From Actinomycetaceae bacterium (GTDB lineage Bacteria > Actinomycetota > Actinomycetes > Actinomycetales > Actinomycetaceae): 64,000 bases of DNA. The notes below the pieces were generated by a model that was not told where the DNA came from, did no database searches, and worked only from the letters and a program-made list of their open reading frames with translations. The DNA lies in the NCBI GenBank assembly GCA_030527545.1, contig JAUNAP010000009.1, positions 7,185-71,184 on the forward strand, read 5' to 3'. Both the position numbers and the translations under genes were made by a program. The first letter of the stretch is position 1, and each line of letters begins with the position of its first letter. This document shows positions 6,146 through 50,297 of the stretch, one piece after another.

Positions 6146-6150
6146 GAGCC

Positions 6151-12988: not shown

Positions 12989-13000
12989 TCGACGCGATAG

Positions 13001-13037: not shown

Positions 13038-13061
13038 CGTTTGTCCACGGTCGGAGGAAAC

Positions 13062-32847: not shown

Positions 32848-32848
32848 C

Positions 32849-32923
32849 GGGCGATTGGCGCAGTTTGGTTAGCGCGTTTCCTTGACACGGAAGAGGTCGC
32901 TGGTTCGAGTCCAGTATCGCCCA
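32849..32923 (+). tRNA. tRNA-Val (anticodon GAC)
   Basis: GGGCGATTGGCGCAGTTTGGTTAGCGCGTTTCCTTGACACGGAAGAGGTCGCTGGTTCGAGTCCAGTATCGCCCA. Confidence 0.85.
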
Positions 32924-32997
32924 CGATAGTGAAGAGGAGGGCGGCCCGCCGGGCCGCCCTCCTCTGTATCTCGCGTCTTATCTGACGTAATCCTCGC

Positions 32998-34578: not shown

Positions 34579-34651
34579 GCGGATGTAGCTCAGTTGGTAG
34601 AGCATCACCTTGCCAAGGTGAGGGTCGCGGGTTCGAGTCTCGTCATCCGCT
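34579..34651 (+). tRNA. tRNA-Gly (GCC), second copy
   Basis: Identical to the copy at 32775, including about 50 nt of upstream leader. Confidence 0.85.
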
Positions 34652-34685
34652 CGGAATGTGGGGGCTGGGTGCCCCTTCTTTCTTT

Positions 34686-34756
34686 GGTGGGTTGGCCGAG
34701 TGGTGAGGCAGCGGCCTGCAAAGCCGTATACACCGGTTCGAATCCGGTACCCACCT
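34686..34756 (+). tRNA. tRNA-Cys (anticodon GCA)
   Basis: GGTGGGTTGGCCGAGTGGTGAGGCAGCGGCCTGCAAAGCCGTATACACCGGTTCGAATCCGGTACCCACC. Confidence 0.8.
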
Positions 34757-34757
34757 C

Positions 34758-34832
34758 GGGCGATTGGCGCAGTTTGGTTAGCGCGTTTCCTTGACACGGA
34801 AGAGGTCGCTGGTTCGAGTCCAGTATCGCCCA
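34758..34832 (+). tRNA. tRNA-Val (GAC), second copy
   Basis: Identical to the copy at 32849. Confidence 0.85.
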
Positions 34833-35102
34833 CCACTGTATGCGGATTCCCACCCCGCATTCGCGTCCCCTCCTTCAGCGGCCTCGCGCCGCATTGCTGT
34901 CGTTTTTCTCTGTGCGCTTCGCCACGCCTAGCCCCCCGTCTTTGCCTGTGGCGAGGTCCTGGCGGGGGACGATCGCACCGACGTTGCAGTCGCGTCATGC
35001 GACACGCCTGTACACGATGAGACGAAAATGACCGAAGGGCGAGGGGAGCCGGCGCTACATTGAGGTACAAGGAACAGCACCGGAAGCAAAGGAGCAGCCA
35101 TC

Positions 35103-37394
35103 GTGATCCCCGCCCGCCCGCCCGTGCCCACACGCGACATCGCATCTGTCCTGGCCGCCCTCACGCGCGAGGAGAAGGTCGCCATGGTACAGGGATCGGA
35201 CTTCTGGCATCTTGCCGGTGTCGAACGCCTTGGTATCCCCTCGGTCATGGTCTCCGACGGGCCGCACGGCCTGCGCCAGCAGAGTCAAGAGGCCGACCAC
35301 CTCGGGGTTAACGACGCGCGCGAGGCCGTGTGCTTTCCCACCGGGGCTGCTTCGGCATCGAGCTTCGACCCAGAACTCATGCGTCGATTGGGGGAGACCA
35401 TTGGTCGCGAGGCGCAAGCCCGAGACCTGGCCGTCGTCTTGGGCCCCGCGATCAACATCAAACGCTCACCCCTGTGCGGACGCAATTTTGAGTATCTCTC
35501 CGAGGACCCCTATCTCTCCTCGACGTTGGCAGCCGCCTACATCGAAGGTGTACAAAAGCACAACGTTGGCACGTCCCCTAAGCACTTTGTCGCCAACAAC
35601 CAGGAGACCCGGAGAATGACCTCGTCGTCGAACATCGACGAGCGAGCCCTCAGAGAGATCTACCTGGCATCGTTCGAACGGGCTGTCGAGCAGGCTGCGC
35701 CGTGGACCATCATGTCGTCGTACAACAGGGTCAATGGCACCTACGTCGGGGAGTCACGTGAGCTGCTCACCGGCATTTTGCGCGACGTGTGGGGCTTTAG
35801 TGGCGTCGTCGTCTCGGACTGGGGGGCGGTATCCGAACGTGTCGCCTCCCTCAAGGCGGGCCTCGATCTGGAGATGCCTGCTTCCGGGGAGGCAACCAAC
35901 GAGCGCCTCTTGGCGGCGATGGAGAGTGGAGAGCTCGACGAGCGCGATCTCGATACAGCGTGCCGAAGAATCCTCGAGCTCATATTCCGATACGTAGACA
36001 ATCGCGAGACGGACGCAGTTTTCGATCCTCAAGCGGACCACGTGCTCGCACGACAATTCGCTGCTGAAAGCATCGTACTCCTGGATAACCCTGACAACGT
36101 GCTGCCCCTTGAGCCCGACAGCGCCATCGCTTTCATCGGTGAATTCGCCACATCTCCGCGGTTCCAGGGCGGAGGCTCGTCGCACATATCCACGAGCAAC
36201 GTCACTTCTGCGGTCGCGGCCGCCGCCGAGGCGGGCCTGAACGTGACGTACGCCCGCGGCTATGACCTGGAAGCAGATGAGCCGATAGCCTCGCTCGTGG
36301 AGGAGGCCGTTGCCACGGCTCGCGCGGCCGACGTCGCCGTCGTCTTCGCCGGCCTTCCCGACTCCTACGAATCCGAAGGATACGATCGCAGGCACCTCGA
36401 CCTGCCGCGAGCCCACAACGAGCTCATCGCAGCGGTCGCGGCCGTGCAGCCGCGTACAGTTGTTGTCCTCCACAACGGTTCGCCGGTGAGTATGCCGTGG
36501 AGAAACGACGTGGCCGGGATCGTCGAAGCCTACCTGGGAGGAGAAGCGATCGGCGGTGCCGTCGTCGACATCCTCACGGGGGCCGTCAACCCGTCGGGCC
36601 GTCTCGCCGAGACGTTTCCCCTGCGCATCGAGGACACCCCCGCCTACCTGACTTTCGGCCGTGCCAGCGACGATGTCTCCTACAACGAAGGGGTATTCGT
36701 CGGCTATCGCTACTACGCCTCCATCGGCCGTGACGTTCTTTTTCCCTTCGGCCACGGCCTGTCCTACACAACCTTTGAGGTCGACGACCTCACGGTGAGT
36801 GCTCGGGAAATGGGTGAAGACGACGAGATTGAGGTCAGCGTGAGGGTGACAAACACGGGTGAGCGAGCCGGCAAGGAGGTCGTCCAGCTCTACGTAGCTT
36901 CCGCACCGTCGTCCCTTCCGCGTCCCGTTCGCGAACTGCGAGGCTTCGATAAGGTCGAGCTCGCTGCAGGTGCATCTGCGCGGGTGCATTTCCGTCTTAG
37001 CCGGCGTGCCTTTGCCCACTGGGACACGGCAACTCACGACTGGGCGGTCGAGGGCGGAACGTACGGTATCGAGATTTGCGCGAATGCCCACACGCCGTTG
37101 CTGCGGACAGACGTCGCCGTCACCGCCAGCGGGGGAGCGCCGCTTGCCATCGACCGTCACACGCGTCTCGGTGATCTTCTCGAAATCCCCTCTTATCGCC
37201 TTGAAATCGACGCCTTCTTTGCGGACAAGAAGCGAGGCCTCTTCGGCAACGCCGCCATAGAATCGGAAGCGATCAGCCACGAGATGATAGAAGCAATGAT
37301 GCTCGACATGCCGCTGCGTCAGCTTGCGAGCTTTAACGACGAGGTTGGCTGCGACGAGATTGACACCCTCATCGCGCGGCTGCGTGCCATTTAG
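35103..37394 (+). CDS. bglX: Glycoside hydrolase family 3 beta-glucosidase
   Basis: GH3 N-terminal, C-terminal and fibronectin-like domains. KHFVANNQE and GFSGVVVSDW catalytic-region motifs. Confidence 0.85.
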   Translation: MIPARPPVPTRDIASVLAALTREEKVAMVQGSDFWHLAGVERLGIPSVMVSDGPHGLRQQSQEADHLGVNDAREAVCFPTGAASASSFDPELMRRLGETIGREAQARDLAVVLGPAINIKRSPLCGRNFEYLSEDPYLSSTLAAAYIEGVQKHNVGTSPKHFVANNQETRRMTSSSNIDERALREIYLASFERAVEQAAPWTIMSSYNRVNGTYVGESRELLTGILRDVWGFSGVVVSDWGAVSERVASLKAGLDLEMPASGEATNERLLAAMESGELDERDLDTACRRILELIFRYVDNRETDAVFDPQADHVLARQFAAESIVLLDNPDNVLPLEPDSAIAFIGEFATSPRFQGGGSSHISTSNVTSAVAAAAEAGLNVTYARGYDLEADEPIASLVEEAVATARAADVAVVFAGLPDSYESEGYDRRHLDLPRAHNELIAAVAAVQPRTVVVLHNGSPVSMPWRNDVAGIVEAYLGGEAIGGAVVDILTGAVNPSGRLAETFPLRIEDTPAYLTFGRASDDVSYNEGVFVGYRYYASIGRDVLFPFGHGLSYTTFEVDDLTVSAREMGEDDEIEVSVRVTNTGERAGKEVVQLYVASAPSSLPRPVRELRGFDKVELAAGASARVHFRLSRRAFAHWDTATHDWAVEGGTYGIEICANAHTPLLRTDVAVTASGGAPLAIDRHTRLGDLLEIPSYRLEIDAFFADKKRGLFGNAAIESEAISHEMIEAMMLDMPLRQLASFNDEVGCDEIDTLIARLRAI

Positions 37395-37427
37395 GTTCGA
37401 CTCGCGCCCTGCCGGGTTTGCTGGGCG

Positions 37428-37661
37428 TCACGCGAACCCGGCGCGGGCGTGAGTAGGGACATCTCTGCTGCGGGCGGGGAGCAACGGTAGGCGGTGGGTA
37501 AAGGTCGTTCGACGATGTAGTTGTGCGCGCGAAAAGCCGACTGCGCGGGCCACGTCGTCGACACCGACGGGTTCGTGAATGTGGTCGCAGATGAACCTGA
37601 ATGCGCGAGCGACCGCAGTGTCCGAGGACACCGGCGCGCGGCACGCCCTAACCGCGGATTA
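37428..37661 (-). pseudogene. C-terminal remnant of an AraC-family HTH regulator, truncated at the boundary of the inserted element
   Basis: The minus-strand frame reads ...ICDHIHEPVGVDDVARAVGFSRAQLHRR (an AraC-type HTH helix pattern). An in-frame stop occurs exactly where the GC content drops, at about 37660. Confidence 0.4.
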
Positions 37662-37689
37662 CAAGTTCCTTGATTTGGTTGTGCCGCAC

Positions 37690-38691
37690 ATGACAGCACG
37701 CCAGTTGGTGGCAGTAGTTATGTCACTGACGGTGGTGCGGTCAAAGTATTCAGTGACACGAATGACCGCACATGATGCAGCGAGAGTACTTTATTGCAGT
37801 GACTGCAATGAAGGCACATGGATAAGTTCCTCTCTTGGCGGTGGTTTGTTTTCCAATGGTTGCGTGATTACCCGTGAGATGTATGAGTGGGAAACAGCCA
37901 TGGCTGCGCAAGGTCTGCTTGAGCGAACTATCCGTGAGCGGATTCGACTTCTGAGCTGGGCCTCTGATCGGCTCGGTGTTGATCCGATGTTCTTCACCAC
38001 CGATCAGGTCGCGCGTTTGCTTGCCGGTGTGGAGCAGCCTTGGACTCGTTATGACTATGGGTCGATTCTTCGGGTGTGGTTTGACTGGCTGGTGTTGACT
38101 GAGCGGATTGCTTCCACCCCGATGAGTCGTATGCGCGGGCCGAAACTGCCGCCCGATAATCCGCGTCCGGCTTCGCTTGAGCATTGGCATGAGGTGCTTG
38201 ATTCGCCGCTGTACCACATGACGCGTACACGCATCATGTTTGCTGCGTTTGCGGGGCTGCGGGTGAGCGAGATTGCGCAGCTACATAGCCGTGAATTTGA
38301 TCGTGAGGCAGGCACGATGCTTGTCCACTCCAAGGGCGGTAGGCGTCATGTGATCCCGGTACATCCGCTGCTTGTGGCTCGTGCGGCTCGCTATCGTGCT
38401 GGCTACTTGGTTCCTGGTGCTCATCGAAAAGGACACGTGTCGGGCAAGTCGGTCTCGGCGTCGATATCGGATGCGTTTCGCAGGCACGGCTACTCAGATA
38501 CGGCGCATCAGCTGCGTCATTTGTTCGCGACTCAACTGCTGCGTGGAGGGGTGGACTCGCGTGTGGTTCACACGCTCATGCGTCACCGCTCACTAGCGAC
38601 AACGGCTCGGTATCTGGAGGTCAATGTGGGACAGCAGCGTGAGGCTTTGAGTCTTTTGCCTTGCACACTTATCCCGCCATACATGCAGTGA
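37690..38691 (+). CDS. int: Tyrosine-type site-specific recombinase / phage integrase family
   Basis: C-terminal catalytic motifs AHQLRHLFAT and LMRHRSLATTARYLEV (R...HxxR...Y). The start was set at the first ATG inside the low-GC region. Confidence 0.75.
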   Translation: MTARQLVAVVMSLTVVRSKYSVTRMTAHDAARVLYCSDCNEGTWISSSLGGGLFSNGCVITREMYEWETAMAAQGLLERTIRERIRLLSWASDRLGVDPMFFTTDQVARLLAGVEQPWTRYDYGSILRVWFDWLVLTERIASTPMSRMRGPKLPPDNPRPASLEHWHEVLDSPLYHMTRTRIMFAAFAGLRVSEIAQLHSREFDREAGTMLVHSKGGRRHVIPVHPLLVARAARYRAGYLVPGAHRKGHVSGKSVSASISDAFRRHGYSDTAHQLRHLFATQLLRGGVDSRVVHTLMRHRSLATTARYLEVNVGQQREALSLLPCTLIPPYMQ

Positions 38692-38775
38692 CAGGTGTGC
38701 TGGCGGTGAAGGTAGTCGCCGCAATACAGGCAGTGACAGCAGGACATGCAATGACAGGGCTACATGCGGTGACAG
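38685..38775. repeat. Four direct repeats of GCRGTGACAG (iteron-like), at about 38685, 38729, 38748 and 38766. The last three are 18 bp apart
   Basis: The copies GCAGTGACAG, GCAGTGACAG, GCAATGACAG and GCGGTGACAG are visible between int and parA. Confidence 0.5.
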
Positions 38776-38815
38776 CGGTGATGTCGTGGCATGTGTTGAA
38801 AGCGGGAGGAACCAA

Positions 38816-39478
38816 ATGATGACAACTAAACGTGTACCCGTGATTGCCTTGTGCAACCAAAAGGGTGGGGTTGGAAAGACGACGACGTATCATCTCGCGC
38901 GTGCCGCGTGCCAGGCGGGGGTGCGGGTGCTGGTGGTTGACATGGATCCGCAAGGAAACGTCACTGCGGCTTTGGCGCCAGAACTTGGCGAGGATATTGA
39001 AGGTGTGGCTCACGCACTGAGTAGTGAGTGTATCGATGAGTTTGATCTGGTGCTGATTGATTGTCCTCCTAGCTTGGATCAGCTGACGGTGACTGCTCTG
39101 ACAGCAGCGAGTGGCGTGGTAGTGGTGACAGCAGCGCGGTTGTGGTCTGCGTCAGGGTGGGTGCGTTTGTCGGAAACGGTTGCTCAAGTGAAGGCGGCTT
39201 ATAACCGGGGGCTGGAGCATTTGGGGATCATCGTCAATGCGATGGAGGCTACGACGCGTACGAGGCGGCATTGGCATGAGGAATTGCGTGAGGCTGCCGA
39301 GAGCGCGGGTATGAGGTTGTTTGCGCCTGCTATCCCAAAGCGGACGCTGATCGGTGATACGGCGGAGGCGTCGTTGGGGCTCGATGAGCAAGGCGCGGTA
39401 GGGCGTGAGTTGGCCGAGATCTATACCGGCTATCTCGAAGAACTGCTTGCCGCGCGTGAGGAAGGAGAAGGTCGATGA
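38816..39478 (+). CDS. parA: ParA/Soj-family partition ATPase (orphan; no parB adjacent)
   Basis: Deviant Walker A motif LCNQKGGVGKTTT. The start is at the ATG at 38816, after a GGGAGGA RBS. Confidence 0.8.
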   Translation: MMTTKRVPVIALCNQKGGVGKTTTYHLARAACQAGVRVLVVDMDPQGNVTAALAPELGEDIEGVAHALSSECIDEFDLVLIDCPPSLDQLTVTALTAASGVVVVTAARLWSASGWVRLSETVAQVKAAYNRGLEHLGIIVNAMEATTRTRRHWHEELREAAESAGMRLFAPAIPKRTLIGDTAEASLGLDEQGAVGRELAEIYTGYLEELLAAREEGEGR

Positions 39479-39720
39479 GTAGTTGACGGTAGCTAGGGTT
39501 GAGGCCTTGCCGGTGCGAGTGGCATGCTGAGGCCATCACTCGACTGGTGGGGATGAGGGTGGGATAGATATATCCATGATGGGAGACTGGACGCCATGAT
39601 ATCGGTGTGCCATAGATACGCTTTCATCTCAGAATGTGGAACTCTCTGTACTGCTCTGTCATTGTCTCGTAGCGTTGGGTCTAGTAGAGAACGAGCTCTA
39701 CGTTGAGATTGGAGAGATGT

Positions 39721-39837
39721 ATGGGAGCGCAGCCGCAACCTAAGGGAAGCAAACCGAACGAGTCGGACTTCGTCTTGGAAGAGATCGACGATGACGTCCC
39801 TGCACTTATTCAGCAGGGGAACACATTCAAACCCTGA
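39721..39837 (+). CDS. Candidate 38-aa precursor/substrate peptide MGAQPQPKGSKPNESDFVLEEIDDDVPALIQQGNTFKP. It is not in the ORF track
   Basis: A GGAGAG RBS lies 5 nt upstream. It is on the same strand as, and 70 nt upstream of, the RRE-SagB gene. It has an acidic leader-like segment and island-like GC content. Confidence 0.35.
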   Translation: MGAQPQPKGSKPNESDFVLEEIDDDVPALIQQGNTFKP

Positions 39838-39907
39838 TGTTTGAGGCCCTGGCTCCTTGGTGCGCAATCGTCGCGTCAAGGAGCCGGAGATTAGTAGGAG
39901 GCGAAGA

Positions 39908-41008
39908 GTGAATTACAGGCTAACTAGCGAGCTAGAGCTTGTCGTGCAGTCGCCCGAGAATCACTGTCTCATTATTGGGCCCGATAGAAAGAAGACTCGT
40001 TGCGATCCGATGACCGCAGCTGTACTTCTTGCGTTGAGCTCGGGTAGCCAGTCGTTAGAATCGTTGTCTAATGTACTTTCTGGGGTATCTCGCGAAGATC
40101 TGGAAGTAAGGATATCCGGACTGCGCAAATCGGGGTTCGTAGACGAGGAAGTGGTTCCGGATGCCGATCTTGACAAGCGTGAGTCGGTCTCTCCTGACTT
40201 CGTAGGTTGGCGCGAGGCGCTGCATTATGTTAATGCGACGTGGGACTATCCCTTTGTTGACTATTCACGCGGCGGTCAGCGAGTGGACCGTAAGAGAATG
40301 AAAGCCTACGAAGGCGAGGCCGACGACGTTGTACGAAGTCTCCCGGTGAGAGGTGAGTGGACCTGCGATCTGCCGTCCGTTGAACAAGCGCTTAAGGAAC
40401 TCGGTGAGCCAACCGCTAAGTTGTCACTTCTACAGCTGCTCAAGAACGTTACAGCAGCAGCTACGCGCCCACTAGAGTACATGCCTTCGCGAACTAATGG
40501 TGCACCACACCTGCATCGGCTTGCGCCATCAGGGGGAGCTCGGCATCCGATCGAACTTTATCTTCTAGTCATTGACGTAGAGGGGATTGCACCTGGCGTG
40601 TATCACTCGAATATTTCGAGCGGTGATTTGAGGAGGATATGCAAGTTGCCTCCAGTCGAAGAACTAGAGAGGAATCTCTATGGGGCATGGCGTTTAGGAT
40701 GCAAACCGCGTGCAATATTTTTGTTGACGGCGCACGTTATGCGCAATATGTATCGTTATCGGGAGCCGCGGACATTCCGGACACTTTTCTATGATGCCGG
40801 CCATATGGGCGGACTGATCGAGGCACTGGCAAATGATTCTGCCATTGTTGCCCATGGGCATCACGGCTTCGTGGATAGTTATGCGGCGACACTCACGCAG
40901 TCGCAATCGCTTGCGAAAGAGGTGCCAACCTATCTGGTTTCCGTCGGGATCCGGGCGGAATTGGAACCCGGAACGAAGATGATTGGAAGGTCAAGACTCA
41001 AGCTATGA
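39908..41008 (+). CDS. SagB/McbC-type (TIGR03605-like) FMN dehydrogenase with an N-terminal RRE/PqqD-like winged-helix domain
   Basis: The C-terminal half carries the SagB signature PSGGARHPIELYLLV in a nitroreductase fold. The N-terminus (LLALSSGSQSLESLSNVLSGVSREDLEVRISGLRKSGFV) resembles a PqqD/RRE peptide-binding domain. The start was set at the GTG at 39908, after an AGGAGG RBS; the ORF track starts at 39857. Confidence 0.65.
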   Translation: MNYRLTSELELVVQSPENHCLIIGPDRKKTRCDPMTAAVLLALSSGSQSLESLSNVLSGVSREDLEVRISGLRKSGFVDEEVVPDADLDKRESVSPDFVGWREALHYVNATWDYPFVDYSRGGQRVDRKRMKAYEGEADDVVRSLPVRGEWTCDLPSVEQALKELGEPTAKLSLLQLLKNVTAAATRPLEYMPSRTNGAPHLHRLAPSGGARHPIELYLLVIDVEGIAPGVYHSNISSGDLRRICKLPPVEELERNLYGAWRLGCKPRAIFLLTAHVMRNMYRYREPRTFRTLFYDAGHMGGLIEALANDSAIVAHGHHGFVDSYAATLTQSQSLAKEVPTYLVSVGIRAELEPGTKMIGRSRLKL

Positions 41009-41961
41009 AACGTCTACGCGTGCATATAGGACCTTCAAGCCCAGACTCGCTTCCGCTTGCAGTTGATCTTTCGTGCGGTAAAGTGTTCCGTATTGACTCA
41101 AGAAAGCTCGCTGACCACCTTGTGGAATCTGGTGTCAACGAGGTCATGGATACGAAAGACTTCGGTGAAATCGACGATGAATACGCCAGTTGGGAAGCGA
41201 ATGGATGGGGAGAGGGGCTCTATTATTATCTCGCGTCGCAGCAGTGTTCATTCGTTGACGGAGACCCGCATACCTTTAGGCGGGCTCAGGGTGAGATTTT
41301 GCGAGAGTATGCGCGAGATGGGGGCGTGCCGCGGGAGACGCGTGAGCGCAAGAAAGGGATTCGTCTTAGGGAGAGTCAAACTACAGTTGACGGGGGCCTG
41401 CTAGACTGCCTACTTAAGAGGCGCACGACGCTCGTGCCTAAGCAAAATCATCTGGATTTCGAGCATTGCTCAGATATCCTAGTAGAAGGGTTAGCGAAAC
41501 TTGCCGAATTTCGTGCGTGGGATGCAACAGTACCGCCTGAGAACGCCCTGGTAAATTTCGGACCATCGCTTGACGTCTATGTCATTGTATATGATGAAGC
41601 GATTTGTGATCCCGGCGTTTATCGCGTATCGCTTACAGAAAAGAGCCTAATCAAGGTGAAGGCAGGCTTGTACCGTCTGGAGATGCGTACCGCGCTCGTT
41701 GGCCAACCAGCGCCCATGACCGCCGCAGTGACTGTCGTCTATGTGAGTGATATCAAACGACACTGGTGGCGATATAGACATGAGCGTGCACTTAGAGGAC
41801 TGTGGATTGATACAGCCAAGGTTGTCAACGAGCTGCTTTGGGCGCTAGCACGCCTCGGGGTAGTGCCGCACATTACTCCTGCCTTCCATGAGACATCGCT
41901 ATGTGGACTCCTGGGACTCGACCGCGGGTACCTCCCGATGTACGCGATATCTTTTGGTTAG
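41005..41961 (+). CDS. Second SagB-like nitroreductase-fold protein, translationally coupled to the first
   Basis: It has a 4-nt overlap with the upstream gene. The C-terminal pattern AAVTVVYVSD...NELLWALARLGVVPHITPAFHETSLCGLLGLD...YAISFG is typical of SagB/nitroreductase domains. Confidence 0.55.
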   Translation: MKRLRVHIGPSSPDSLPLAVDLSCGKVFRIDSRKLADHLVESGVNEVMDTKDFGEIDDEYASWEANGWGEGLYYYLASQQCSFVDGDPHTFRRAQGEILREYARDGGVPRETRERKKGIRLRESQTTVDGGLLDCLLKRRTTLVPKQNHLDFEHCSDILVEGLAKLAEFRAWDATVPPENALVNFGPSLDVYVIVYDEAICDPGVYRVSLTEKSLIKVKAGLYRLEMRTALVGQPAPMTAAVTVVYVSDIKRHWWRYRHERALRGLWIDTAKVVNELLWALARLGVVPHITPAFHETSLCGLLGLDRGYLPMYAISFG

Positions 41962-43287
41962 TTGGTGACGCTTATGGCCACAGAGGATGCGGGAGGAACG
42001 TCCCTAGGATCTAAGGTTGGTCTTGCCAGAGATGTCACAGGCTACGCGTGGCGTCTGGCATTGGGGTCGCTTCTAGGCCTCGTGTTGGGTTTTACTGACA
42101 CGCTCGTCGTTGCGAAGCACTCGACCGAGGCACTGGGCGCCGTGGCATTCGGTGCAGCGATATACGAGCTTCCAGCAAACGTCTTGATGGGGGCTCTGAT
42201 AGCGCACAGGATCCTAGCGCCGGCGACATACCGTGATAAACACGGAGACGGGCTCCTCAATATAACGCTACCCCTGCTTGGGGGTGGCATGTGCTTCATT
42301 GCGATCGTAACAGCTGTCGGGGAATGGTTCCCTAATATCAGCGGTTGGATCGGGAGTGAAGCGATTCGATATCTGGCATATCGCTCCCCTGCGTTGTTGT
42401 TCGAAGTAGCCATGGCGGCATTGACCATCAGTCTCCTGGTTCGTGGAGTCAAACGTGCGCCAGTGGTATGTTCGGCAGTGGTCGTTATCGTAAATGTTCT
42501 CCTCGACATAGTCTTCGTTAATGGGTATATGGGATTCGGCCCAAATGGGGCAGCTGGAGCGGGCTTGGCCAGCAGTGTGAGCTCTGTGCTTGGGGCTGCC
42601 CTGCTCGCAGTCTGGCTGGTTCGTGTTGCTGGCTGGTCCATCACTAACTTTCATAGGAGTGATGGAACATATGCCGGCTGGTTACGATTGAGTTGGCCTG
42701 CTTGCCTATCCGCGGTACTTGATTATGGTGGGGCGCTATTGTTTGTCGAGCTCGTCCGCTTAGTTGGCGACGACAGCCTAGCTGGCTTACGTCTAGGTCT
42801 TCAGTTTCATATGATGCTGTTTATAGTCATCTCGTCGTTGTCAAACGCGTCTCTAAATGTATTGGGAAGCAAGCGGTCTAATGACGCACGCGATCTTGCT
42901 GTATTGATAGCTGAGGTTAAGCCACTCTTCCGCGCATGTGTTCTCGTCTGTGCGGTTGCTGCTGTCCCGATCATATTCGCTATCCAAGGAATATTTCGTC
43001 TCGATAGTGCTGTGTTCGAGTCTGCCGTGCTGATGGTCGTCGCTGTGGCTATCTCCGCGCCTTTCGCTGGTTATGCTTATCTTGCTGTTACTGAGCTCCG
43101 ACTGTTGCGTAATACGAAGATTGAGATGTTCGGCAATGTGCTAGCGACATGGTGTATCCAATTGCCCTTTGCTTATATGATGGCTAAATTAGGGTGGGGT
43201 AATATGGTTTTCTTTGGCCTCGTAGGTTACTGGATCTTCAGGATGGCGTACTATCGTGTTGCGCTCCAAAGATACTATCGGTTGTGA
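41962..43287 (+). CDS. MATE/MOP-superfamily multi-pass membrane exporter
   Basis: About 12 TM helices and a composition consistent with the MATE family. The start could be at TTG 41962, GTG 41965 or ATG 41974. Confidence 0.55.
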   Translation: MVTLMATEDAGGTSLGSKVGLARDVTGYAWRLALGSLLGLVLGFTDTLVVAKHSTEALGAVAFGAAIYELPANVLMGALIAHRILAPATYRDKHGDGLLNITLPLLGGGMCFIAIVTAVGEWFPNISGWIGSEAIRYLAYRSPALLFEVAMAALTISLLVRGVKRAPVVCSAVVVIVNVLLDIVFVNGYMGFGPNGAAGAGLASSVSSVLGAALLAVWLVRVAGWSITNFHRSDGTYAGWLRLSWPACLSAVLDYGGALLFVELVRLVGDDSLAGLRLGLQFHMMLFIVISSLSNASLNVLGSKRSNDARDLAVLIAEVKPLFRACVLVCAVAAVPIIFAIQGIFRLDSAVFESAVLMVVAVAISAPFAGYAYLAVTELRLLRNTKIEMFGNVLATWCIQLPFAYMMAKLGWGNMVFFGLVGYWIFRMAYYRVALQRYYRL

Positions 43288-43297
43288 CAGGAGCGGT

Positions 43298-44263
43298 ATG
43301 ATGCAGGATGTTGGGGGACACTTAGTCTTCGGAGAGTGGTGGGGGTTTCCTCGGCATCCATTCGGATTGGGAGCTGTTTCGGATAGTAGTGAAATGCTCT
43401 ATATCGAACTTCTTTATGCACTCAAAGGTCCCTCCGTAGAACCGCTACTCCCGTTCAGTAGTGGATTAGGTGCGCGTTGCAAAGATGGCGATGACATTTG
43501 TGAGCGAATTATCTGTATGTATGAAAGCCTCCTAGGCGACTTGAAGAGTGTGGCGTCAGTGATCGGTGACGATCCAGAGAAATATTTTGCAGCATTCGAT
43601 TCGCGGTGGGCTGTCAGTGGTATGGATGTCGCAACGCTCGTCGATTATGTGTGTGATCGGCTCAAAGAGCATGCGGTGCCGCAAACCCGTCGACTACTCG
43701 CTGCTGTGTGTGGCGTGCCTTATCCAGTCTCTTTGAGAGAGTGGATAGATCTGGCTATGTACCCTGCTTTGCCTGCACATATTGCGCCGCAGATCTGGGT
43801 GCGGCCTCCGACGGGCGCTGCGGAGTTGCCCTGTGATTGGTCTGTTAGGTCCGTTGTCGCGGTGTGCCATGAGGTTGTTGGACACTTATTTCAACACAGG
43901 TTACTTCAAGGTAATATTTCACGCCACGCATCACTCGATCGCGAGTTGATGGAAGGCTGGGCAATCTACGCGGAGGGTGTTCTTCGCGGGCTTGGTGAGC
44001 TTGAAATGGCTGCGGTCACGTTATGGGAGGCCAAGAGGCTATGCCCTCTTGCGGCAGAGGTATTGGGCGCTGAGCTCGCAGAGGACTTTTTTCGAAGGAT
44101 GCGGTTGGCACTCCCGACGTATTGTTCGGCACCAGAACTTACGTTCTTCCGTCGAACGACACGTAGGCACGCAAGAGGTTACTTGCGGCTTGTTACTGAA
44201 TTTGAGATTGATCGATCAGTAAATTTGCTCCAAAATTACTTGTACTTCAACCCCTGGCGATAA
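43298..44263 (+). CDS. Putative zinc metallopeptidase (HExxH motif HEVVGH with a downstream Glu in MEGWAIYAE)
   Basis: Gluzincin-like HExxH...E arrangement. The start was set at the ATG at 43298, which follows an AGGAGCGG RBS and the MATE stop. Confidence 0.45.
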   Translation: MMQDVGGHLVFGEWWGFPRHPFGLGAVSDSSEMLYIELLYALKGPSVEPLLPFSSGLGARCKDGDDICERIICMYESLLGDLKSVASVIGDDPEKYFAAFDSRWAVSGMDVATLVDYVCDRLKEHAVPQTRRLLAAVCGVPYPVSLREWIDLAMYPALPAHIAPQIWVRPPTGAAELPCDWSVRSVVAVCHEVVGHLFQHRLLQGNISRHASLDRELMEGWAIYAEGVLRGLGELEMAAVTLWEAKRLCPLAAEVLGAELAEDFFRRMRLALPTYCSAPELTFFRRTTRRHARGYLRLVTEFEIDRSVNLLQNYLYFNPWR

Positions 44264-44592
44264 ATAGCGTTCCAATGAGTTTCCGGTGGAGCTGATGGGT
44301 ATCGGTCGCAGCATCTGGGGTTGCAGGATGCGCAGTGCAGTGAGAAGTTGTAGGCGTTGTCACTCCGCTATCGCTGGCCGAGACGTACGGTGGGGGACAT
44401 CTCGACGTGTTCGTCTTCAAGCCTACCCGGCGGGGTGATGTTCTAGGTAGCGTTAGCGAGCTGATCGAGATTTTCAGTGCTGTATGCAGCCGTCCGTGAG
44501 GCGCTGTCTGGCGAGATGCCCTTAGTGAAGTTGTGAGGGCAGTTCTGTGTCCTCGTGTACATCCTTGGAATTACCTACCTCTGGGAGACACT

Positions 44593-46143
44593 ATGTCGAT
44601 TGGGAGGACACGGCGTAGAGCCGTGGCAAAGGTGACTGCTGGCGTGGCTGTCGTAGGGGTTATTGCCTCAGGAATGGTCGGGGTGGGAGCTACCCCGGCT
44701 GAGGCTGTGACGATTTATCGGGCCGCTGACCCGGGCTACGCCCTGCCCTGGAATGGCCACTACACGTGGCTTGGTGCCTACAACAACCCGGCAGGCTCGG
44801 GCTTGTCGTGGCGTACCGAGATTGACGCTAGCGCGCCTGGCCCAAACAACGTGGTCTCTACCTACGAGATCACCGGCAACTCCAACATGATGCAACTGGG
44901 TGGAGAAGATGTCATGATCCACTCCTCTGCGCAGATGCGGTGGATCCTCGACACCTATCAGAAGACTGCCACGGCAGACTCTAGGGCCACTATCGCTGTG
45001 ATCGTCCACCTCAACTACGACGCGACGAGTGCCGACTCGTGGGGCAAGTACTGGGGGTATGGTCCGGTCGCGCTACCCGGCCGTTGCCAAGCTTGTGCGT
45101 GATTACGTCTACCAGGCCAAGGGGAATGCGCCATGGCAGGGTGCTGCGCCTAAGGCCAAGACGGAGAACAAGCGCATTGGCGATGTTCACAACATCGGTG
45201 TTCAGAATCAGGGCGGCGGGTGGATCGCTGGTAGCCCGGCCACGGTCATGGTCACGCTCGATGATCCTGCGATGTTCGATGAGACCGGCAACATCACGTG
45301 GTCGGGTAACACGCAGAACCAACCGCTTAGTCTCAAGTGGCATTCCACGGGTAACGGCAAGGATACGTTCACGATGCGTTTCAACCAGGCCTATTGGGTG
45401 AACAAGATCCAGTCCAGCCCTTGTAAGCAGGACTTGATCTACCGGTGGGTGACCCGCGTGAGGTCACGGTGCCGGGTAACCCGGTCGATGTGGTCATGGA
45501 TTTCCAGCCCCAAGCGGTGTCGAACGTGGGCACGGCGAAGGTCGTGGACAAGACCGTGAAGGTTCTCAATGACACGATCAGCGTGTCTGCTGATAGCGGT
45601 ACGCAGTGGATCGATGGGGTCAAGGTGAAGTTCACCGGTATCGCGTATTATGCGGGTACGAAGCTTCCTGCCGAGTCCAAGGACGTGCCGAAGGATGCTG
45701 TGAAGGTTGGGACGGTTGAGATTACAGCGGATACGCCGGGTGATTACCCGGCAACGCTGAAGCTGGACAAGCCGGTGAAGCCCGGGTTTGTGACCTGGGT
45801 GTGGAAGATGGATAAGGCCGCCCAAGATGCTTCCGTGAAGGAATACATCAAGGGTGACTGGTCGGATTCTTATGGTCTTGCCGCTGAAACAACGTCGGTG
45901 CGTGAGCAAGCCAAGATCACCGCGAACGCTAGCGTGTCTGAGGATGCTAAGGCGGGCAGCTGGAAGTTATTGGATGCGGTAACGGCCAAGCGAGCGAGCA
46001 TCTGTTCGGCATGGGCCCTGGTAAAACCGCCCTGGCAGGCCGGGCCGACGACGACGAGCGGTTCGGTTGGGGTGACCTCGACGAGAGCGCCGTCCCCCAG
46101 CGAGCGGAGCAGCTCTCCTTCGGGAAGCGCTGCGGCAACATAG
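44593..46143 (+). pseudogene. Frameshifted gene for a secreted protein with a Tat-like signal (MSIGRTRRRAVAKVTAGVAVVGVIASG...). The reading frame moves 1 to 2 to 1 across ORFs 44533..45102, 45029..45559 and 45445..46143
   Basis: Three overlapping ORFs with coherent protein-like sequence in different frames. The 3' end runs into the high-GC host remnant. Confidence 0.45.
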
Positions 46144-46268
46144 CGCGCGAGGACTGAGGGTGCGCCAATAGTTGCCTCACTGGTGATGACAGTGACTGGC
46201 AGCGACAACGCATCGCGCGCATTGGTCGCCAGGGCCTGCCAGTCCTCGCGTGTCATTCTCACCCCCAC
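45980..46268 (-). pseudogene. N-terminal fragment (~95 aa) of a host gene truncated at the right boundary of the element. It may be the N-terminus of the same AraC-like gene as the 37428 remnant
   Basis: The minus-strand ORF MGVRMTREDWQALATNARDALSLPVTVITSEATIGAPSVLARYVAAALPEGELLRS... is protein-like at 68% GC. It becomes antisense to foreign DNA at about 45980. Confidence 0.4.
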
Positions 46269-46303
46269 GCTTACCTCCTCATCTGACCGGCTAGAGTGAG
46301 CAC

Positions 46304-47632
46304 ATGTCTGTCACCACCCACACTATGGAATCATTTCGCAGCCGCTACGACGCAGATCCTGTCCGCCGGGCGTTAGAAGGACCGATCGGCGTCGTCGGCT
46401 TGGCAAAGGCCTCGCGTCGGGCCGACGTCGTTCGGCGCCACACTTTCGAATTCAGTGTCACGGTTCCCGCCGGCGAGATTACGAATCAGAAGAAATCTGG
46501 GCGCTGCTGGATCTTTGCCTCGTGTACATCGCTTCGCGCGGCACTCATGGAACGTTACGAGACGAAAGACTTCCGGCTGGCTCCGAGCTACGTGTTCTTC
46601 TACGACAAGATCGAGAAGGCTAACACGTTCCTCGACCACATCGAGGACACCCTCGACGCTGCCGACGACGACCGGGTGGTGCGTGCCGCGCTGGACAGCG
46701 TCGTATCGGACGGGGGCGACTGGGACTACTTCGTCTCGCTCGTGAAAAAGTGGGGAATCGTGCCCTATCAGGCGATGCCTGACACGGAGAATTCCACCGA
46801 TTCTCACCGGATGGTCGAGCAGATGAACAGCCACCTGCGCCACGCGGCCGCGCTCATGCGGCGCGCTCATCGCGAAGGTCGAGTGGCACAGATTCCCGCC
46901 ATTCGTGAAGAAGCACTCTATGCCGTGTATGGCATCGCTCGCGCGTGTCTGGGGACCCCGCCTAGCGAGTTCACCTACGGATACCGTGACAAGGACGACA
47001 CCTATCACCGCATCGGGCCGATGACGCCGCGTGCGTTCGTCACGGACGTGTTGGGCGAAGACGTCCTCGACTCGCGCGTGGTCATCGGATACGATCCGAG
47101 GCCCGCCCATCCCGTCCACCGCCTGCTTCGTGTCCCGCACAACAAGTCTGTTGCCGAGGGACGTGCGCTGTCGGCCCTCACGGTCACACTCGAGGAGATG
47201 AAGGCCGCCGTTATTGCCCAGCTTCGTTCAGGGCAGGCCGTCTACTTCGGCTGCGACGTCGATCGCGACACGGACCGCGAACTCGGAATTATGGACCCGC
47301 AGCTCTTTGACTGGCAAACGATGCTGCCCGCCCTAGCGTCTATCTCTGACGCCGAGCGGGTTGCCGTCGGCGAGGTCGTGCCGACGCACGCGATGGCTTT
47401 TACCGGCGTCGACCTTGATGAGCAGGAGCGGCCCGTCAACTGGCGAGTCGAGAACTCCTGGGGCGAAGACAGCGGCCGTAAAGGTGTGTATTCGATGTCG
47501 GACGGATGGTTCGACCGGCACATGGTGACCTGTGTGGTCGACAAGCGGCACCTGTCCGAAGAAATCCTCGCCGGGCTGGCAGCCGAACCCATTGACCTCG
47601 AACCCTGGGACGCTCTCTTCGGCGCCGTGTGA
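46304..47632 (+). CDS. pepC: Aminopeptidase C (bleomycin hydrolase, peptidase C1B)
   Basis: Catalytic Cys in QKKSGRCWIFA and the C1B family pattern. Confidence 0.85.
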   Translation: MSVTTHTMESFRSRYDADPVRRALEGPIGVVGLAKASRRADVVRRHTFEFSVTVPAGEITNQKKSGRCWIFASCTSLRAALMERYETKDFRLAPSYVFFYDKIEKANTFLDHIEDTLDAADDDRVVRAALDSVVSDGGDWDYFVSLVKKWGIVPYQAMPDTENSTDSHRMVEQMNSHLRHAAALMRRAHREGRVAQIPAIREEALYAVYGIARACLGTPPSEFTYGYRDKDDTYHRIGPMTPRAFVTDVLGEDVLDSRVVIGYDPRPAHPVHRLLRVPHNKSVAEGRALSALTVTLEEMKAAVIAQLRSGQAVYFGCDVDRDTDRELGIMDPQLFDWQTMLPALASISDAERVAVGEVVPTHAMAFTGVDLDEQERPVNWRVENSWGEDSGRKGVYSMSDGWFDRHMVTCVVDKRHLSEEILAGLAAEPIDLEPWDALFGAV

Positions 47633-47637
47633 GGTGG

Positions 47638-47674
47638 CCTACCCGGGTTCGGGTCGTGTTCCGGGCCCGGGTAG
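47638..47674 (+). terminator. GC-rich hairpin (CCTACCCGG...CCGGGTAGG) after pepC / in the thrS leader
   Basis: Inverted repeat starting 6 nt after the pepC stop. Confidence 0.35.
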
Positions 47675-47719
47675 GATGGTGGTGATTTCACTGGGAGTCT
47701 TTGACAGAAGGAGCCGCGC

Positions 47720-49714
47720 ATGAGTGTGCGCACAGTATCGATCGATGGCAGCCCCCGCGAGATTGAGGCGGGCACCACCGGCGCGCAACTGTTCGCCGAG
47801 ATGGACGGCGTCTGTGCGATGAGCATCAACGGGGAGGCATGGGATCTGTGCCGCGAGATTCCCGACGGCGCGAACGTCTCTGCGATCCTCCTCGACTCGC
47901 CCGAGGGACTGCAGATCCTGCGTCACTCGTGCACGCACGTGATGGCGCAGGCTGTCCAGCAGCTGTATCCGGACGTCAATCTCGGGATCGGCCCCTTCAT
48001 CGAGGACGGCTTCTACTACGATTTCGGCAACATCGAGGCGATCACGCCGCAGATCCTTAAGCAGATCGAAAAGAGGATGAAGCGGATCGTCAAGGAAGGC
48101 CAGGCATTCCGCCGTCGGACGGTCACGGCGGAGGAAGCGCGCGCCGAACTCGCTGATCAGCCTTACAAACTCGAGCTCATCGATACGAAGGGGGCCGGCG
48201 CCGATGGGGCCTCGGTCGAGGTTGGCGCAGGCGAACTCACGATCTACGACAATGTCACCCGTTCCGGTGACGTTGCCTGGAAGGACCTATGCCGCGGCCC
48301 CCACCTGCCGACGACGAAATGGATCGGAAAGGGATTCGCGCTGACGAAGTCGTCGGCCGCCTACTGGAAGGGCGACCAGAATAACGACAATATGCAGCGT
48401 ATCTACGGCACGGCCTGGGCGAGCAAGGAGGATCTCGAGGCCTATCAGACGAGGATGCGCGAGGCCGAGCGCCGTGACCACCGTAAGCTCGGGACCCAGC
48501 TCGATCTGTTCTCCTTCCCCGACGAGATCGGTTCGGGGCTGCCGGTGTTCCACCCCAAGGGTGCGATCGTGCGCCAGGAGATGGAAAACTACTCGCGCAC
48601 CCGCCATATCGAGGCCGGCTATCAGTTTGTCTATACCCCCCACATCACCAAGGGCGACCTGTTTTCGACCTCGGGTCACCTCGACTGGTATCGCGATGGA
48701 ATGTTCCCGGCGATGCACGTTGACGAGGAGCGAGGCGAGGACGGCGATGTAGTCAAGCCTGGTCAGGACTACTACCTCAAGCCGATGAACTGCCCCATGC
48801 ACAACCTCGTTTTTTCCTCGCGCGGACGTTCCTACCGGGAACTGCCGCTGAGGCTGTTCGAGTTCGGGACCGTGTATCGCTACGAGAAGTCAGGAGTCAT
48901 TCACGGACTGACGCGTGCGCGCGGGTTCACGCAAGATGATTCCCACATCTATTGCACTCGCGAGCAAATGCGTGACGAACTCGCGAGCCTGCTCACCTTC
49001 GTTCTCGACCTTTTGCGCGACTACGGGCTCGACGATTTCTACCTCGAACTGTCGACAAAGAATCCGAAGAAGTTCGTCGGCGACGACGACGTGTGGGAGG
49101 AAGCGACCCGCACCCTCGCCGAGGTTGCCGACGCCTCAGGTCTCGAACTCGTTCCCGACCCCGAGGGTGCGGCTTTCTATGGACCCAAGATTTCGGTCCA
49201 GGCCCGCGACGCCATCGGGCGCACCTGGCAGATGTCGACAATTCAGCTCGATTTCAACCTGCCTGAGCGTTTCGATCTCGAATACACGGCCGAGGACGGG
49301 TCCCGTCAGCGTCCCGTCATGATCCACCGTGCGCTCTTTGGCTCGATCGAGCGGTTCTTCGGCGTCCTCACCGAGCATTACGCGGGCGCCTTCCCCGCGT
49401 GGCTGGCGCCCGTTCAGGTGCGCTGCATTCCCGTGGCCGACGCCTTCAACGGCTACCTAGAAGACATCGCCGCCAAGTTGGGCGCCGAAGGGATCCGAGT
49501 GGAGGTTGATCGCTCCGCGGACCGTTTCGGCAAGAAGATCCGCAACGCTGCCACCGAGAAGATCCCGTTCGTTCTCATCGCCGGCGGCGAGGATGCCGAG
49601 GCCAACGCCGTATCCTTCCGCTACCGCGACGGACGCCAGGACAACGGCGTCGCTATCGACGAGGCAATCTCGCGCATCGTCGAGGCGGTGAGGAGCCGCT
49701 CGAATGATTTCTGA
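47720..49714 (+). CDS. thrS: Threonine--tRNA ligase
   Basis: TGS and editing domains ([10 protein letters not shown]), class II motifs and an anticodon-binding domain. Confidence 0.92.
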
Positions 49715-50297
49715 GACGCTCCCCACCCCCCGGGAGGGCAGCGATTTCGCCGGCGAACCCGACGGTTTCGAGAGGCTGTGGACCCCCCACCGCTGGGCCT
49801 ACATCTCCGGGGAGGAGAAGCCGGCGGATCACTCCAGCAAGGAGTGTCCCTTCTGCGTGGCTCCCTCACGTAGCGATGAGGAGGGACTCATCGTCTATCG
49901 GGGTGAACGCGTCTTCGCCCTCATGAACCTCTTTCCCTACAATTCGGGGCACCTCCTCGTGTGCCCCTACCGGCATGTCCCCGGTTACGTCGATCTCACG
50001 CCCGAAGAGCGCGAGGAGTTCGGCGAGGTAACGGCTCAAGCTCTGCGGGTGTTAGGGGCCTCCTCCCAGCCCCAGGGCTTTAACCTGGGCATGAATCAGG
50101 GCGAGGTCGCGGGTGCCGGCATTGCCGCGCACCTGCACCAGCACATCATTCCGCGTTGGCGTGGGGACGCGAATTTCTTCCCTCTCATCGCGCGCACAAA
50201 GGCAGTGCCCGAGCTCATCGGGCAGGCACGTGAAAGGCTCGCTATGGCCTGGAGGGAGGCTGCGGGCTCATGCTCGGACAACACGGACGGCAGGTAA
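49704..50297 (+). CDS. HIT-family protein (histidine triad; GalT/Ap4A-phosphorylase-like)
   Basis: HxHxHxx-type motif HLHQHIIPR. Its position after thrS is conserved in actinobacteria. Confidence 0.75.

Follow-up and report, generated by a model that had tools for sequence, protein, structure and literature searches.

The window analysed here is a 64,000-nucleotide stretch of DNA from an Actinomycetaceae bacterium (contig JAUNAP010000009.1), and this account concerns a segment of low guanine-plus-cytosine (GC) content at 37658-45980, which an earlier note had taken for a single integrated element of about 8.3 kb. Three blocks of genes follow one another in this segment. Layer 1 (37652-39481) holds the gene (int) for a tyrosine integrase, an array of short repeat boxes and a parA gene. 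Layer 2 (39721-44263) is an operon consisting of a short precursor-peptide gene, genes for two SagB-like proteins (SagB-A and SagB-B), a MATE-family transporter gene and a gene for a protein with an HExxH motif. Layer 3 is a surface-protein pseudogene. The same arrangement is reproduced at 99.97-100% identity in three independent assemblies (ERR13865461, ERR13865439 and SRR24915840). We read the low-GC stretch, with a probability of roughly 0.7, as a composite and now immobile island of these three layers, lying between a tRNA-Gly/Cys/Val cluster and the gene pepC.

Comparison with a sister strain, represented by contig L034, separates the layers. Positions 1-2391 of L034 align with window 35108-37498 at 97.3% identity, and positions 3221-13733 align with window 39482-50000 at 97.0%. 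The intervening part of the window, 37499-39481, which comprises the first helix-turn-helix (HTH) of an AraC-family regulator gene, int, the boxes and parA, is replaced in L034 by 829 unrelated bp; from 3 nt past the parA stop codon the two sequences are homologous again. As the sister strain lacks int-parA and yet carries the SagB operon and the pseudogene in this place, the 8.3 kb are not one integrated unit, contrary to what had been proposed. The replacing sequence (L034 2392-3220) has a GC content of about 60% and contains a 211-aa Gly/Ser-rich open reading frame (ORF) without match anywhere in the window, as well as a second AraC HTH. The number of synonymous substitutions per site (dS) between the window and L034 is 0.059-0.088 for the genes of the SagB cassette and 0.049-0.076 for bglX, pepC and thrS. 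Since the dS of the cassette equals that of the backbone, the operon predates the split of the two strains and has been inherited vertically since. The ratio of nonsynonymous to synonymous divergence (dN/dS) of the cassette, 0.19-0.37, is that expected of an operon under purifying selection.

The site was also compared with that of a relative, L030, whose pepC is 55% identical. There the distance from tRNA-Val to pepC is about 0.75 kb, versus 11.4 kb in the window, and the order is MFS transporter, tRNA-Gly/Cys/Val, an 82-aa gene and pepC. Both sequences keep the same gene order of pepC, thrS, HIT and pgsA on to a TauE-family gene. The short gap in L030 indicates that the whole of 34836-46303 is variable between lineages, with the tRNA-Gly/Cys/Val cluster as its left limit. 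The search for an empty site, which had been suggested as a check, thus yielded one genome without the island, the distant L030, and none in the same species: a contig scan with pepC gave only distant relatives at 40% identity or less, and exact-protein look-ups returned only the same arrangement.

The compositional anomaly is clear by every measure that was applied. In 500-nt windows, GC is 0.49-0.59 at about 37.5-46.0 kb versus 0.60-0.67 in nearly all other windows, the lowest value outside the island being 0.58, near 30.5-32.5 kb. In 1-kb windows, 8 of 8 inside the island (maximum 0.581) fall below 56 of 56 outside (minimum 0.592; Mann-Whitney p = 5.7e-6). When tetranucleotide usage is compared over an 8.3-kb window, the island correlates with the remaining sequence at 0.74, versus 0.96-0.98 elsewhere. 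Segment by segment, GC amounts to 0.631 at 34836-37498, 0.648 at 37499-37657, 0.567 at 37658-39481, 0.528 at 39482-44263, 0.581 at 44264-45980 and 0.653 at 45981-46303. The GC dip described earlier is therefore real at 37658-45980, and the foreign composition is upheld, as GC and tetranucleotide signature both deviate; the background GC, given earlier as 68%, is instead about 63% (flanks 61-66%).

The integrase gene of layer 1 (37879-38691, plus strand) probably encodes 270 aa and matches PF00589 (E = 1.6e-19) and a PHROG integrase profile (E = 5e-31); the catalytic residues R...K...HxxR...H...Y can be read in the sequence. Its ORF is open back to 37579, that is, before the GC edge, and has an ATG at 37690. 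The start is placed at 37879 because homologues are 260-305 aa long and cover the last ~78% of the longer ORF. Compared with tyrosine integrases from phages of Gordonia and Mycobacterium, the protein shows 35-40% identity; its closest relatives are P0170 (62% identity), a protein of Nanchangia anserum (60%) and P0173 (46%). A viral-contig scan with the integrase gave no match. The two integrase relatives at 62% and 46% identity each stand directly before a full-length ParA (267 aa in contig L045, 261 aa in L046/L047), with a gene of about 205 aa next. Further on, L045 has a gene for a single-stranded DNA-binding protein (SSB), and L046 has genes for an HNH protein and for a TrwC relaxase (PF08751, E = 1e-79). 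With an SSB or a relaxase following int and ParA in its relatives, the module would normally open a larger conjugative or mobilisable element. Neither L045 nor L046 has SagB genes.

A repeat search located five 13-bp boxes, ACATGCrGTGACA, at 38681-38794. Four are direct, with starts at 38681, 38726, 38744 and 38762 and a spacing of 18 bp between the last three; the fifth, at 38782-38794, is inverted. The array ends 22 nt before the parA start. The boxes were considered as replication iterons and rejected as such, since they immediately precede parA and a rep gene is absent; they probably form a partition site or operator. Repeats spaced by 18 bp, although of different sequence, also lie upstream of the parA of an Arthrobacter plasmid. 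In the window, parA (38816-39478, plus strand) encodes a small plasmid-type Walker ATPase of 220 aa (PF13614, PF01656), which scores 86.6 bits against NF041546 (cut-off 180). Its best tblastn matches are in actinobacterial plasmids, at 42-53% identity, and it is 53% identical to the ParA of the Arthrobacter plasmid pAAG24-85. Alignment with the latter shows that about 51 aa between DPQGN and Walker B have been lost in frame; parA is probably defective. No parB-sized ORF follows parA, where the relatives have the gene of about 205 aa. Neither did Pfam and NCBIfam searches of the island ORFs reveal any xis, rep, tra, relaxase, coupling-protein or type IV secretion system (T4SS) gene. Together these findings support the view that the int-repeats-parA module is the remnant of a transferable element of integrative, conjugative or mobilisable kind.

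Much of what had been reported for this module holds. The tyrosine recombinase gene, the repeat array and the orphan parA without parB are all present, although the name iterons gives way to partition site or operator. The start of int 30 nt inside the left edge agrees with the ATG at 37690 but not with the ORF, which opens at 37579, nor with the homologues, which point to 37879. Likewise, the proposed remnant of an integrative/conjugative element or integrative plasmid is retained for the int-parA module and abandoned for the whole 8.3 kb.

On its left, the island is abutted by a GC-rich remnant of an AraC-family regulator gene (37395-37651, minus strand), consisting of the first HTH and the tail. 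The remnant is frameshifted and internally deleted (minus-strand translation ...ARAFRFICDHIHEPVGVDDVARAVGFSRAQLHRR...) and matches PF00165 (HTH_AraC) weakly, with E = 9e-4, below the family cut-off. The AraC remnant of L034 retains the second HTH (RIDQARRELVWSDRTIADIAVGLCFSSQQHFSTVFRSLVGATPTAYR), which has been lost from the window. Next to it, at 37652-37681 (unstranded), comparison with L045 revealed a conserved 28-nt end block, CCGCGGATTACAAGTTCCTTGATTTGGT, of which 25 nt recur at the beginning of contig L045, about as far upstream of int as here. Outward from the block, past CCGCGG, the window has the AraC remnant whereas L045 has what reads as part of a tRNA: the contig starts with CAGGGGCTCGAACCCTGGACCCGCGGATTACAAGTCCCATGATTCGGT, and the reverse complement gives a T-arm (CAGGG-TTCGAGC-CCCTG), a variable loop and a CUUGUAA anticodon loop. 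Rfam returned a truncated tRNA match below threshold for this end of L045 (14.9 bits, E = 1.4) and made no tRNA call at the left junction of the window. The end block is a candidate for the integrase core or an attachment-site (att)-derived junction; as the att core, it would be expected to lie, in the parent elements, within a tRNA-Thr(UGU)-derived repeat containing CTTGTAATCCGCGG. The block places the end of the element stub at about 37652-37658, the position of the GC shift noted earlier, and shows that this end is not joined to its presumed normal target. Among the contigs with integrase relatives (L045, L046/L047 and L048), three of four end 300-350 bp upstream of int, L048 being a 1.3-kb fragment that starts there. 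Breaks before int are as expected of assembly at a strain-variable integration junction.

The edges were also searched for the att direct repeats that an integrated element might have left, as had been recommended, and none was found above chance. No direct repeat of 10 nt or more links 37380-37800 with 45850-46310. The best edge-to-edge 24-mer agrees at 14 of 24 positions in direct orientation (equalled in 107 of 300 shuffles) and at 15 of 24 in inverted orientation (43 of 300). The 3' end of tRNA-Val has no copy in the island. The nearest tRNA is 2.8 kb off, in the cluster of tRNA-Gly(GCC), tRNA-Cys(GCA) and tRNA-Val(GAC) at 34579-34835 (plus strand; ARAGORN, Rfam). The earlier statements that a tRNA cluster lies 2.8 kb upstream and that the island does not adjoin a tRNA 3' end are thus both correct.

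Layer 2 begins with the precursor gene (39721-39837, plus strand), which is found 70 nt upstream of SagB-A and is annotated in public assemblies; it encodes the 38-aa peptide MGAQPQPKGSKPNESDFVLEEIDDDVPALIQQGNTFKP. Homologous small ORFs are located upstream of SagB-A in L034-L042, L049 and L100, and have in common LVLEEI...PALIQQGN followed by a tail of 3-5 residues. A hidden Markov model of the precursor found homologues in at least 10 loci with E values of 4e-15 to 4e-20 and weaker variants further out; in the distant loci the pattern becomes hhEEh...ALMQ, ALVQ or ALTQ, with tails of 2-11 residues. The C-terminal part reads ...SDFVLEEIDDDVPALIQQGNTFKP in the window, ...EEIDDEVPALIQQGNALKP in L034, ...FFIEDIDDETPALIQQGNVYTSR in Actinomyces bowdenii, ...VLLEELEAEAPALIQMGNVMR in Leucobacter, ...LVLEEITEETPALIQQGNRLGC in Nanchangia, ...LVLEEITEPAPALIQQGNIVC in Diaminobutyricibacter, ...LVIEEIEDAAPALIQQGNIRL in L041, ...VVS in L049 and ...RMN in L100. 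The tails TFKP, ALKP, VYTSR, VMR, RLGC, IVC, IRL, VVS and RMN are not rich in Cys, Ser or Thr, and between the window and L034, which are 97% identical, the tail differs at two of four positions. The peptides thus appear to be built of a conserved acidic leader (SDFVLEEIDDDVPALIQQGN in the window), an invariant motif and a short hypervariable tail. One distant locus, L050, has two precursor-like ORFs, at 1282-1407 and 2827-2979 (...IEEIEESPAALMQWNQPTID and ...IEEIEAAPAALMQWNQAPQTLVQE), so that parts of the wider family have more than one precursor and a longer tail.

SagB-A (39908-41008, plus strand) combines an N-terminal domain resembling a recognition element (RRE) of systems for ribosomally made peptides with post-translational modifications (RiPPs) with a flavin mononucleotide (FMN)-dependent dehydrogenase domain of SagB/ThcOx/McbC type. 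It scores 51.5 bits against TIGR03605 (cut-off 78.4) and 52.9 bits against TIGR04511 (cut-off 240). A profile of its family searched against PDB matched the two-domain nitroreductase 3eo7 (1.5e-19), McbC (1.8e-6) and ThcOx (5e-6). An AlphaFold model built with 16 homologues, with a mean confidence score (pLDDT) of 65.8, matched ThcOx (E = 1e-5) and also the oxidase BmdC. In this model, residues 1-82 reach a pLDDT of about 80, form beta strands followed by three helices, and match the RREs of PqqD and leader-bound TbiB1 at template-modelling (TM) scores of 0.62-0.70 on target, together with those of MccB and TruD. On the model, then, SagB-A is predicted to contain an RRE. The start of SagB-B (41005-41961, plus strand) overlaps the stop codon of SagB-A. 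It is a divergent protein of the SagB/nitroreductase fold (PF00881, E = 8.7e-6; TIGR03605, 31.8 bits; TIGR04511, 39.1 bits, cut-off 240), is 23% identical to SagB-A and belongs to a conserved family of its own (RRTTLVP, VGQPAP, RHQWRYRHxRALRGLWIDTAK). It follows SagB-A in most of 51 metagenome loci, and is a probable heterodimer partner of SagB-A. The SagB cluster reported earlier is thus present, with two SagB-like genes.

The MATE-family efflux transporter (41974-43287, plus strand; PF01554; TIGR00797, 83 bits) has a weak match to the tryglysin-associated exporter WgkD and is the probable exporter of the product. The last gene of the operon (43298-44263, plus strand) encodes the 321-aa HExxH protein with the motif HEVVGH, then LDRELMEGWAIYAE. 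In an alignment with its homologues from L034, L040 and L041, H194, E195, H199 and E222-G223 are invariant, and the family keeps HE(V/L)xGH and, about 20 residues on, LDRELxEGWAIxAE, a gluzincin-like signature. Pfam gave a weak match to DUF885 (E = 0.0019), below cut-off. There was no NCBIfam match and no meaningful PDB profile match, and a single-sequence AlphaFold model (pLDDT 39) was unusable. As a guess, the protein may be a gluzincin-type peptidase for leader removal or an HExxH oxygenase. No matching NCBIfam model was found for the precursor either, and Pfam and NCBIfam detected no YcaO and no ThiF-like/E1-like domain in any island ORF. The operon has the general make-up by which a RiPP cluster is recognised in silico, namely a short precursor beside modifying enzymes, a conserved leader and a variable core, and, going by the SagB-A model, an RRE in a modifying enzyme; modification of the peptide itself is predicted.

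The cassette was found again in other organisms. A search of 5.8 billion clustered proteins gave about 16 close homologues of SagB-A (38-51% identity), from A. bowdenii, N. anserum, Leucobacter komagatae, Diaminobutyricibacter and several metagenome-assembled genomes, and about 30 more distant ones. The cassette occurs in Actinomycetaceae and Microbacteriaceae and also in soil metagenomes. Scanning metagenomes yielded 51 further loci, most of which keep the A-B pair. The order in every context read is small ORF, A, B and MATE, with the HExxH protein next in the closer group. The neighbours are unrelated from genome to genome, and the integrase of the window is found in none of the 60-odd other SagB-A loci examined. 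In 7 of 7 loci measured, the GC of the cassette is below that of at least one flank, and in 5 of 7 below both. The difference from at least one flank is 2-17 GC points (including L035, L037, L038, L040, L041 and L049). For example, the cassette has a GC of 0.545 in A. bowdenii (left flank 0.715), 0.566 in Leucobacter (flanks 0.66-0.69), 0.555 in Nanchangia (0.59-0.60) and 0.604 in Diaminobutyricibacter (0.66-0.69). The pattern suggests that the genes were transferred repeatedly from a donor of lower GC, or else that the bias in composition is inherent in them. As the GC is low in other hosts without the integrase, that of the cassette in the window cannot be credited to the neighbouring integrase, and low GC alone neither dates nor proves an integrase-mediated insertion at this site.

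Two of these loci have surroundings of their own interest. In L. komagatae (L037, JXSQ01000003.1) the cassette lies between two copies of xseB, at 8701-9081 and 14499-14885. The copies are 5.8 kb apart, with 88% protein identity (231 nt at 92% and 115 nt at 80%), and look like a target-gene duplication from insertion of a circular cassette-bearing element; no recombinase is visible within 10 kb. In L100 (4301-7558) and L101 (293-1588), both from GCA_007681515.1, a gene for an IS110-family transposase stands directly upstream of the cassette precursor gene. Further upstream are an IS4-like transposase and an AraC regulator, and downstream a DUF3846 gene and a gene with a weak match to a DNA polymerase III beta-subunit domain, all of which points to a mobile-DNA neighbourhood. 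Given the varied contexts, the bracketing by xseB and the IS110 transposase, the cassette itself behaves as a horizontally spread unit.

Layer 3 is a surface-protein pseudogene (44593-45975, plus strand) with a twin-arginine (RRR) signal-like N-terminus, which is read in three frames. Its ORFs, 44533-45102, 45029-45559 and 45445-46143, have no Pfam match. Alignment with L034 shows that the extra G at 45053 occurs in the window only and that the frameshift near 45440 is common to both. With one shared and one private frameshift, decay of the pseudogene is ongoing. Its 3' end is cut where the GC rises, at about 45980, which marks the right edge as a joint left by deletion or recombination, as opposed to an att site. 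To the right, a GC-rich orphan ORF start (45978-46256, minus strand) diverges from pepC and belongs to the backbone, not to the island. HMMER found one significant match for it among 1.84 billion representative proteins, a 132-aa ORF at 92% identity, which has the same length as the ORF called in L034. The idea that this ORF is the other half of the split AraC gene is unsupported, as it has no homologue beyond the near-identical 132-aa ORF. The right backbone continues with pepC from 46304, thrS, a HIT-family gene and pgsA. On the left, the gene for a GH3 beta-glucosidase (bglX; 35103-37394, plus strand) precedes the AraC remnant. A second tRNA cluster, at 32390-32924, includes a tRNA-Gly(GCC) identical and a tRNA-Val(GAC) near-identical to those at 34579-34835, and a tRNA-Val(CAC) lies on the opposite strand. 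The two clusters flank a gene for an MFS sugar transporter (32998-34416, minus strand); since this layout is also present in L030, the duplication is old.

The island can be put together from these data as follows. Layer 1 is the left end, in decay, of an element that was integrative, conjugative or mobilisable; its integrase keeps the catalytic residues, and parB and the transfer genes have gone. Layer 3 is a dead surface-protein gene. Layer 2 is an intact operon, most likely making a small RiPP; by its divergence, distribution and composition it appears to be old, horizontally derived and still selected. For the chemistry we infer a scheme in which the RRE of SagB-A would hold the acidic FVLEEI...PALIQQGN part of the 38-aa precursor, and the SagB-A/SagB-B pair would dehydrogenate a residue in, or next to, the variable C-terminal tail, with no prior cyclodehydration by YcaO. 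The HExxH protein might then cut at the conserved motif, or otherwise (oxidatively) process the peptide, and the MATE pump would export a very small product. Several observations weigh against this account. Both SagB proteins score below the NCBIfam cut-offs, the confidence of the predicted SagB-A structure is only moderate (pLDDT 65.8), and the HExxH protein is outside the NCBIfam and PDB profiles. The tRNA-like end of L045 stays below the Rfam threshold, and a promoter and terminator scan of the island gave counts at chance level. Moreover, L034 is a single metagenome contig and the only island-less genome is the distant L030, so that the direction and number of events are inferred.

Alternatively, the whole of 37658-45980 could have entered once as an integrative and conjugative element (ICE) or integrative plasmid, stub and operon arriving together with the SagB operon and the adhesin gene as cargo; transfer and replication genes would have been deleted later, and the sister strain would afterwards have lost int-parA too. 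This is unlikely in our judgement, despite being in line with several features of the locus. The three layers are contiguous and all of low GC, the left edge is a conserved element end block, and the AraC gene reads in frame to that edge, as an insertion predicts, its remnant decaying independently in both strains; in another genome, the cassette sits among insertion sequence (IS) elements and ICE- or plasmid-like genes. However, the layers are unequal in GC (0.567, 0.528 and 0.581), and the boundary between layers 1 and 2 falls exactly at the parA stop codon, where homology to L034 resumes. Furthermore, the other SagB-A loci, 60-odd in number, lack this integrase, its int-parA relatives in L045 and L046 come without SagB genes, and att repeats are absent.

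The opposite view, that the SagB operon is an old resident of intrinsically low GC and that only int-parA is foreign, having landed beside it by chance, seems to us less probable still. It has to contend with the absence of the cassette from this place in L030 (about 0.75 kb from tRNA-Val to pepC), with a patchy spread in Actinomycetaceae and Microbacteriaceae in unrelated contexts, with the duplicated target gene in Leucobacter and the IS110 beside the cassette in L100, and with a tetranucleotide signature that deviates as well. What speaks for it is the agreement of cassette and backbone dS between the strains, a cassette GC below at least one flank in every genome examined, and the sister strain with the cassette and without int-parA. 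Of the explanations considered, we give least credence to one that concerns layer 1 only, in which the recombinase is a plasmid multimer-resolution (Xer-like) enzyme and int-parA a plasmid stability module captured by illegitimate or homologous recombination. The protein is indeed short (about 270 aa), with no recognisable arm-binding domain, and has a ParA of plasmid type as its partner in every case; in NCBIfam it comes closest to XerC, XerA and XerD, each with a score far under the cut-off, and L046 has a relaxase, as conjugative plasmids do. Yet among annotated proteins it is closest to tyrosine integrases of phages (35-40% identity), and three independent contigs break 300-350 bp upstream of int, one of them in a tRNA-like T-arm, as would be seen at an integration junction.

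Read as a composite island, the locus is ordinary as a mobile element, since its integrase-parA stub is of a kind common in actinobacterial chromosomes. It does call for caution in the calling of genomic islands, because here a GC dip and an integrase adjoin and are yet separable. The cargo, probably an undescribed branch of RiPP biosynthesis, is of more value, as it offers a testable cluster family with a precursor motif, a predicted leader-binding domain, an enzyme pair, a putative processing enzyme and an exporter. Going further, we propose tentatively, at a little under even odds, that the operon at 39721-44263 represents an undescribed RiPP class. Such a class would be defined by an RRE-bearing SagB-type flavoprotein with a paralogous partner and no YcaO, a very short and fast-diverging core after a near-invariant ALIQQGN (ALxQ), a product exportable by a MATE pump, and a discrete low-GC unit of ~5 kb spreading among Actinomycetota. 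If so, tails that differ between two strains of 97% identity would be in keeping with a role as a strain-specific signal or as an antagonist of narrow spectrum. Cultured carriers, namely A. bowdenii, L. komagatae, N. anserum and Diaminobutyricibacter, make the chemistry open to experiment.

Among known systems, layer 1 most resembles ICEs, integrative and mobilisable elements and ParA-bearing conjugative plasmids, having at one end a phage-type tyrosine integrase, after which comes a ParA of plasmid type preceded by repeats. Among the module's relatives, SSB and a TrwC (MOBF) relaxase are present, and in one the end resembles a tRNA. Layer 1 differs from such elements in that the window has no relaxase, coupling protein, T4SS, rep, xis, parB or flanking direct repeats, in the deletion within parA, and in an element end that is joined to an AraC pseudogene and not to a tRNA. 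Without att repeats, transfer genes or parB, and with a damaged parA, the stub is not a functional element. Measured against a type Ib ParABS partition system, it offers the Walker-type domains of a shortened ParA and a putative array of centromere or operator sites, and no gene for the centromere-binding ParB. Actinomycete integrative and conjugative elements (AICEs) such as pSAM2 and SLP1 are defined by int-xis, Rep and an FtsK/SpoIIIE-like Tra. The window shares with them an actinobacterial host, a tyrosine integrase and a proposed tRNA target, but has int alone and no Rep or FtsK-like Tra domains, and its relative L046 has a TrwC relaxase.

The operon of layer 2 is comparable to the systems for microcins with thiazole/oxazole modification (TOMM) and for linear azol(in)e-containing peptides (LAP), such as those of streptolysin S (SagBCD), microcin B17 (McbBCD) and cyanobactins (ThcOx), with which it shares a predicted FMN dehydrogenase of SagB/McbC/ThcOx type with an RRE, a short upstream precursor and an exporter. 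In contrast to these, it has no YcaO and no E1-like partner, its tail is not Cys/Ser/Thr-rich, its SagB-like proteins form a tandem paralogous pair and SagB-A stays below the TIGR03605 cut-off. Lacking a recognisable cyclodehydratase and a heterocyclisable core, it is not filed by us under TOMM/LAP. The best NCBIfam match of both SagB-A and SagB-B is TIGR04511 (SagB_rel_DH_2, putative peptide maturation dehydrogenase), of which neither is a member. A literature search on the precursor motif and on YcaO-independent SagB systems did not find the family described, which is weak evidence of novelty, as subscription journals were mostly uncovered. According to a preprint from the van der Donk laboratory (PMC12636437), YcaO-independent nitroreductases in RiPP clusters are rare and functionally uncharacterised, and a PflD-type nitroreductase domain makes Z-dehydrophenylalanine in a RiPP without YcaO. 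The nitroreductase described there occurs as a fusion with a multinuclear non-haem iron-dependent oxidative enzyme (MNIO) and the HExxH enzyme of that cluster is alpha-ketoglutarate-dependent (IPR026337), whereas the window operon has no MNIO, an HExxH protein outside the curated families, hosts among the Actinomycetota and another precursor motif. The two are alike in having an HExxH enzyme and transporters in the cluster and Gln residues near the C-terminus of the precursor, and this parallel, drawn from the paper only, may serve as a lead to the chemistry of the operon.

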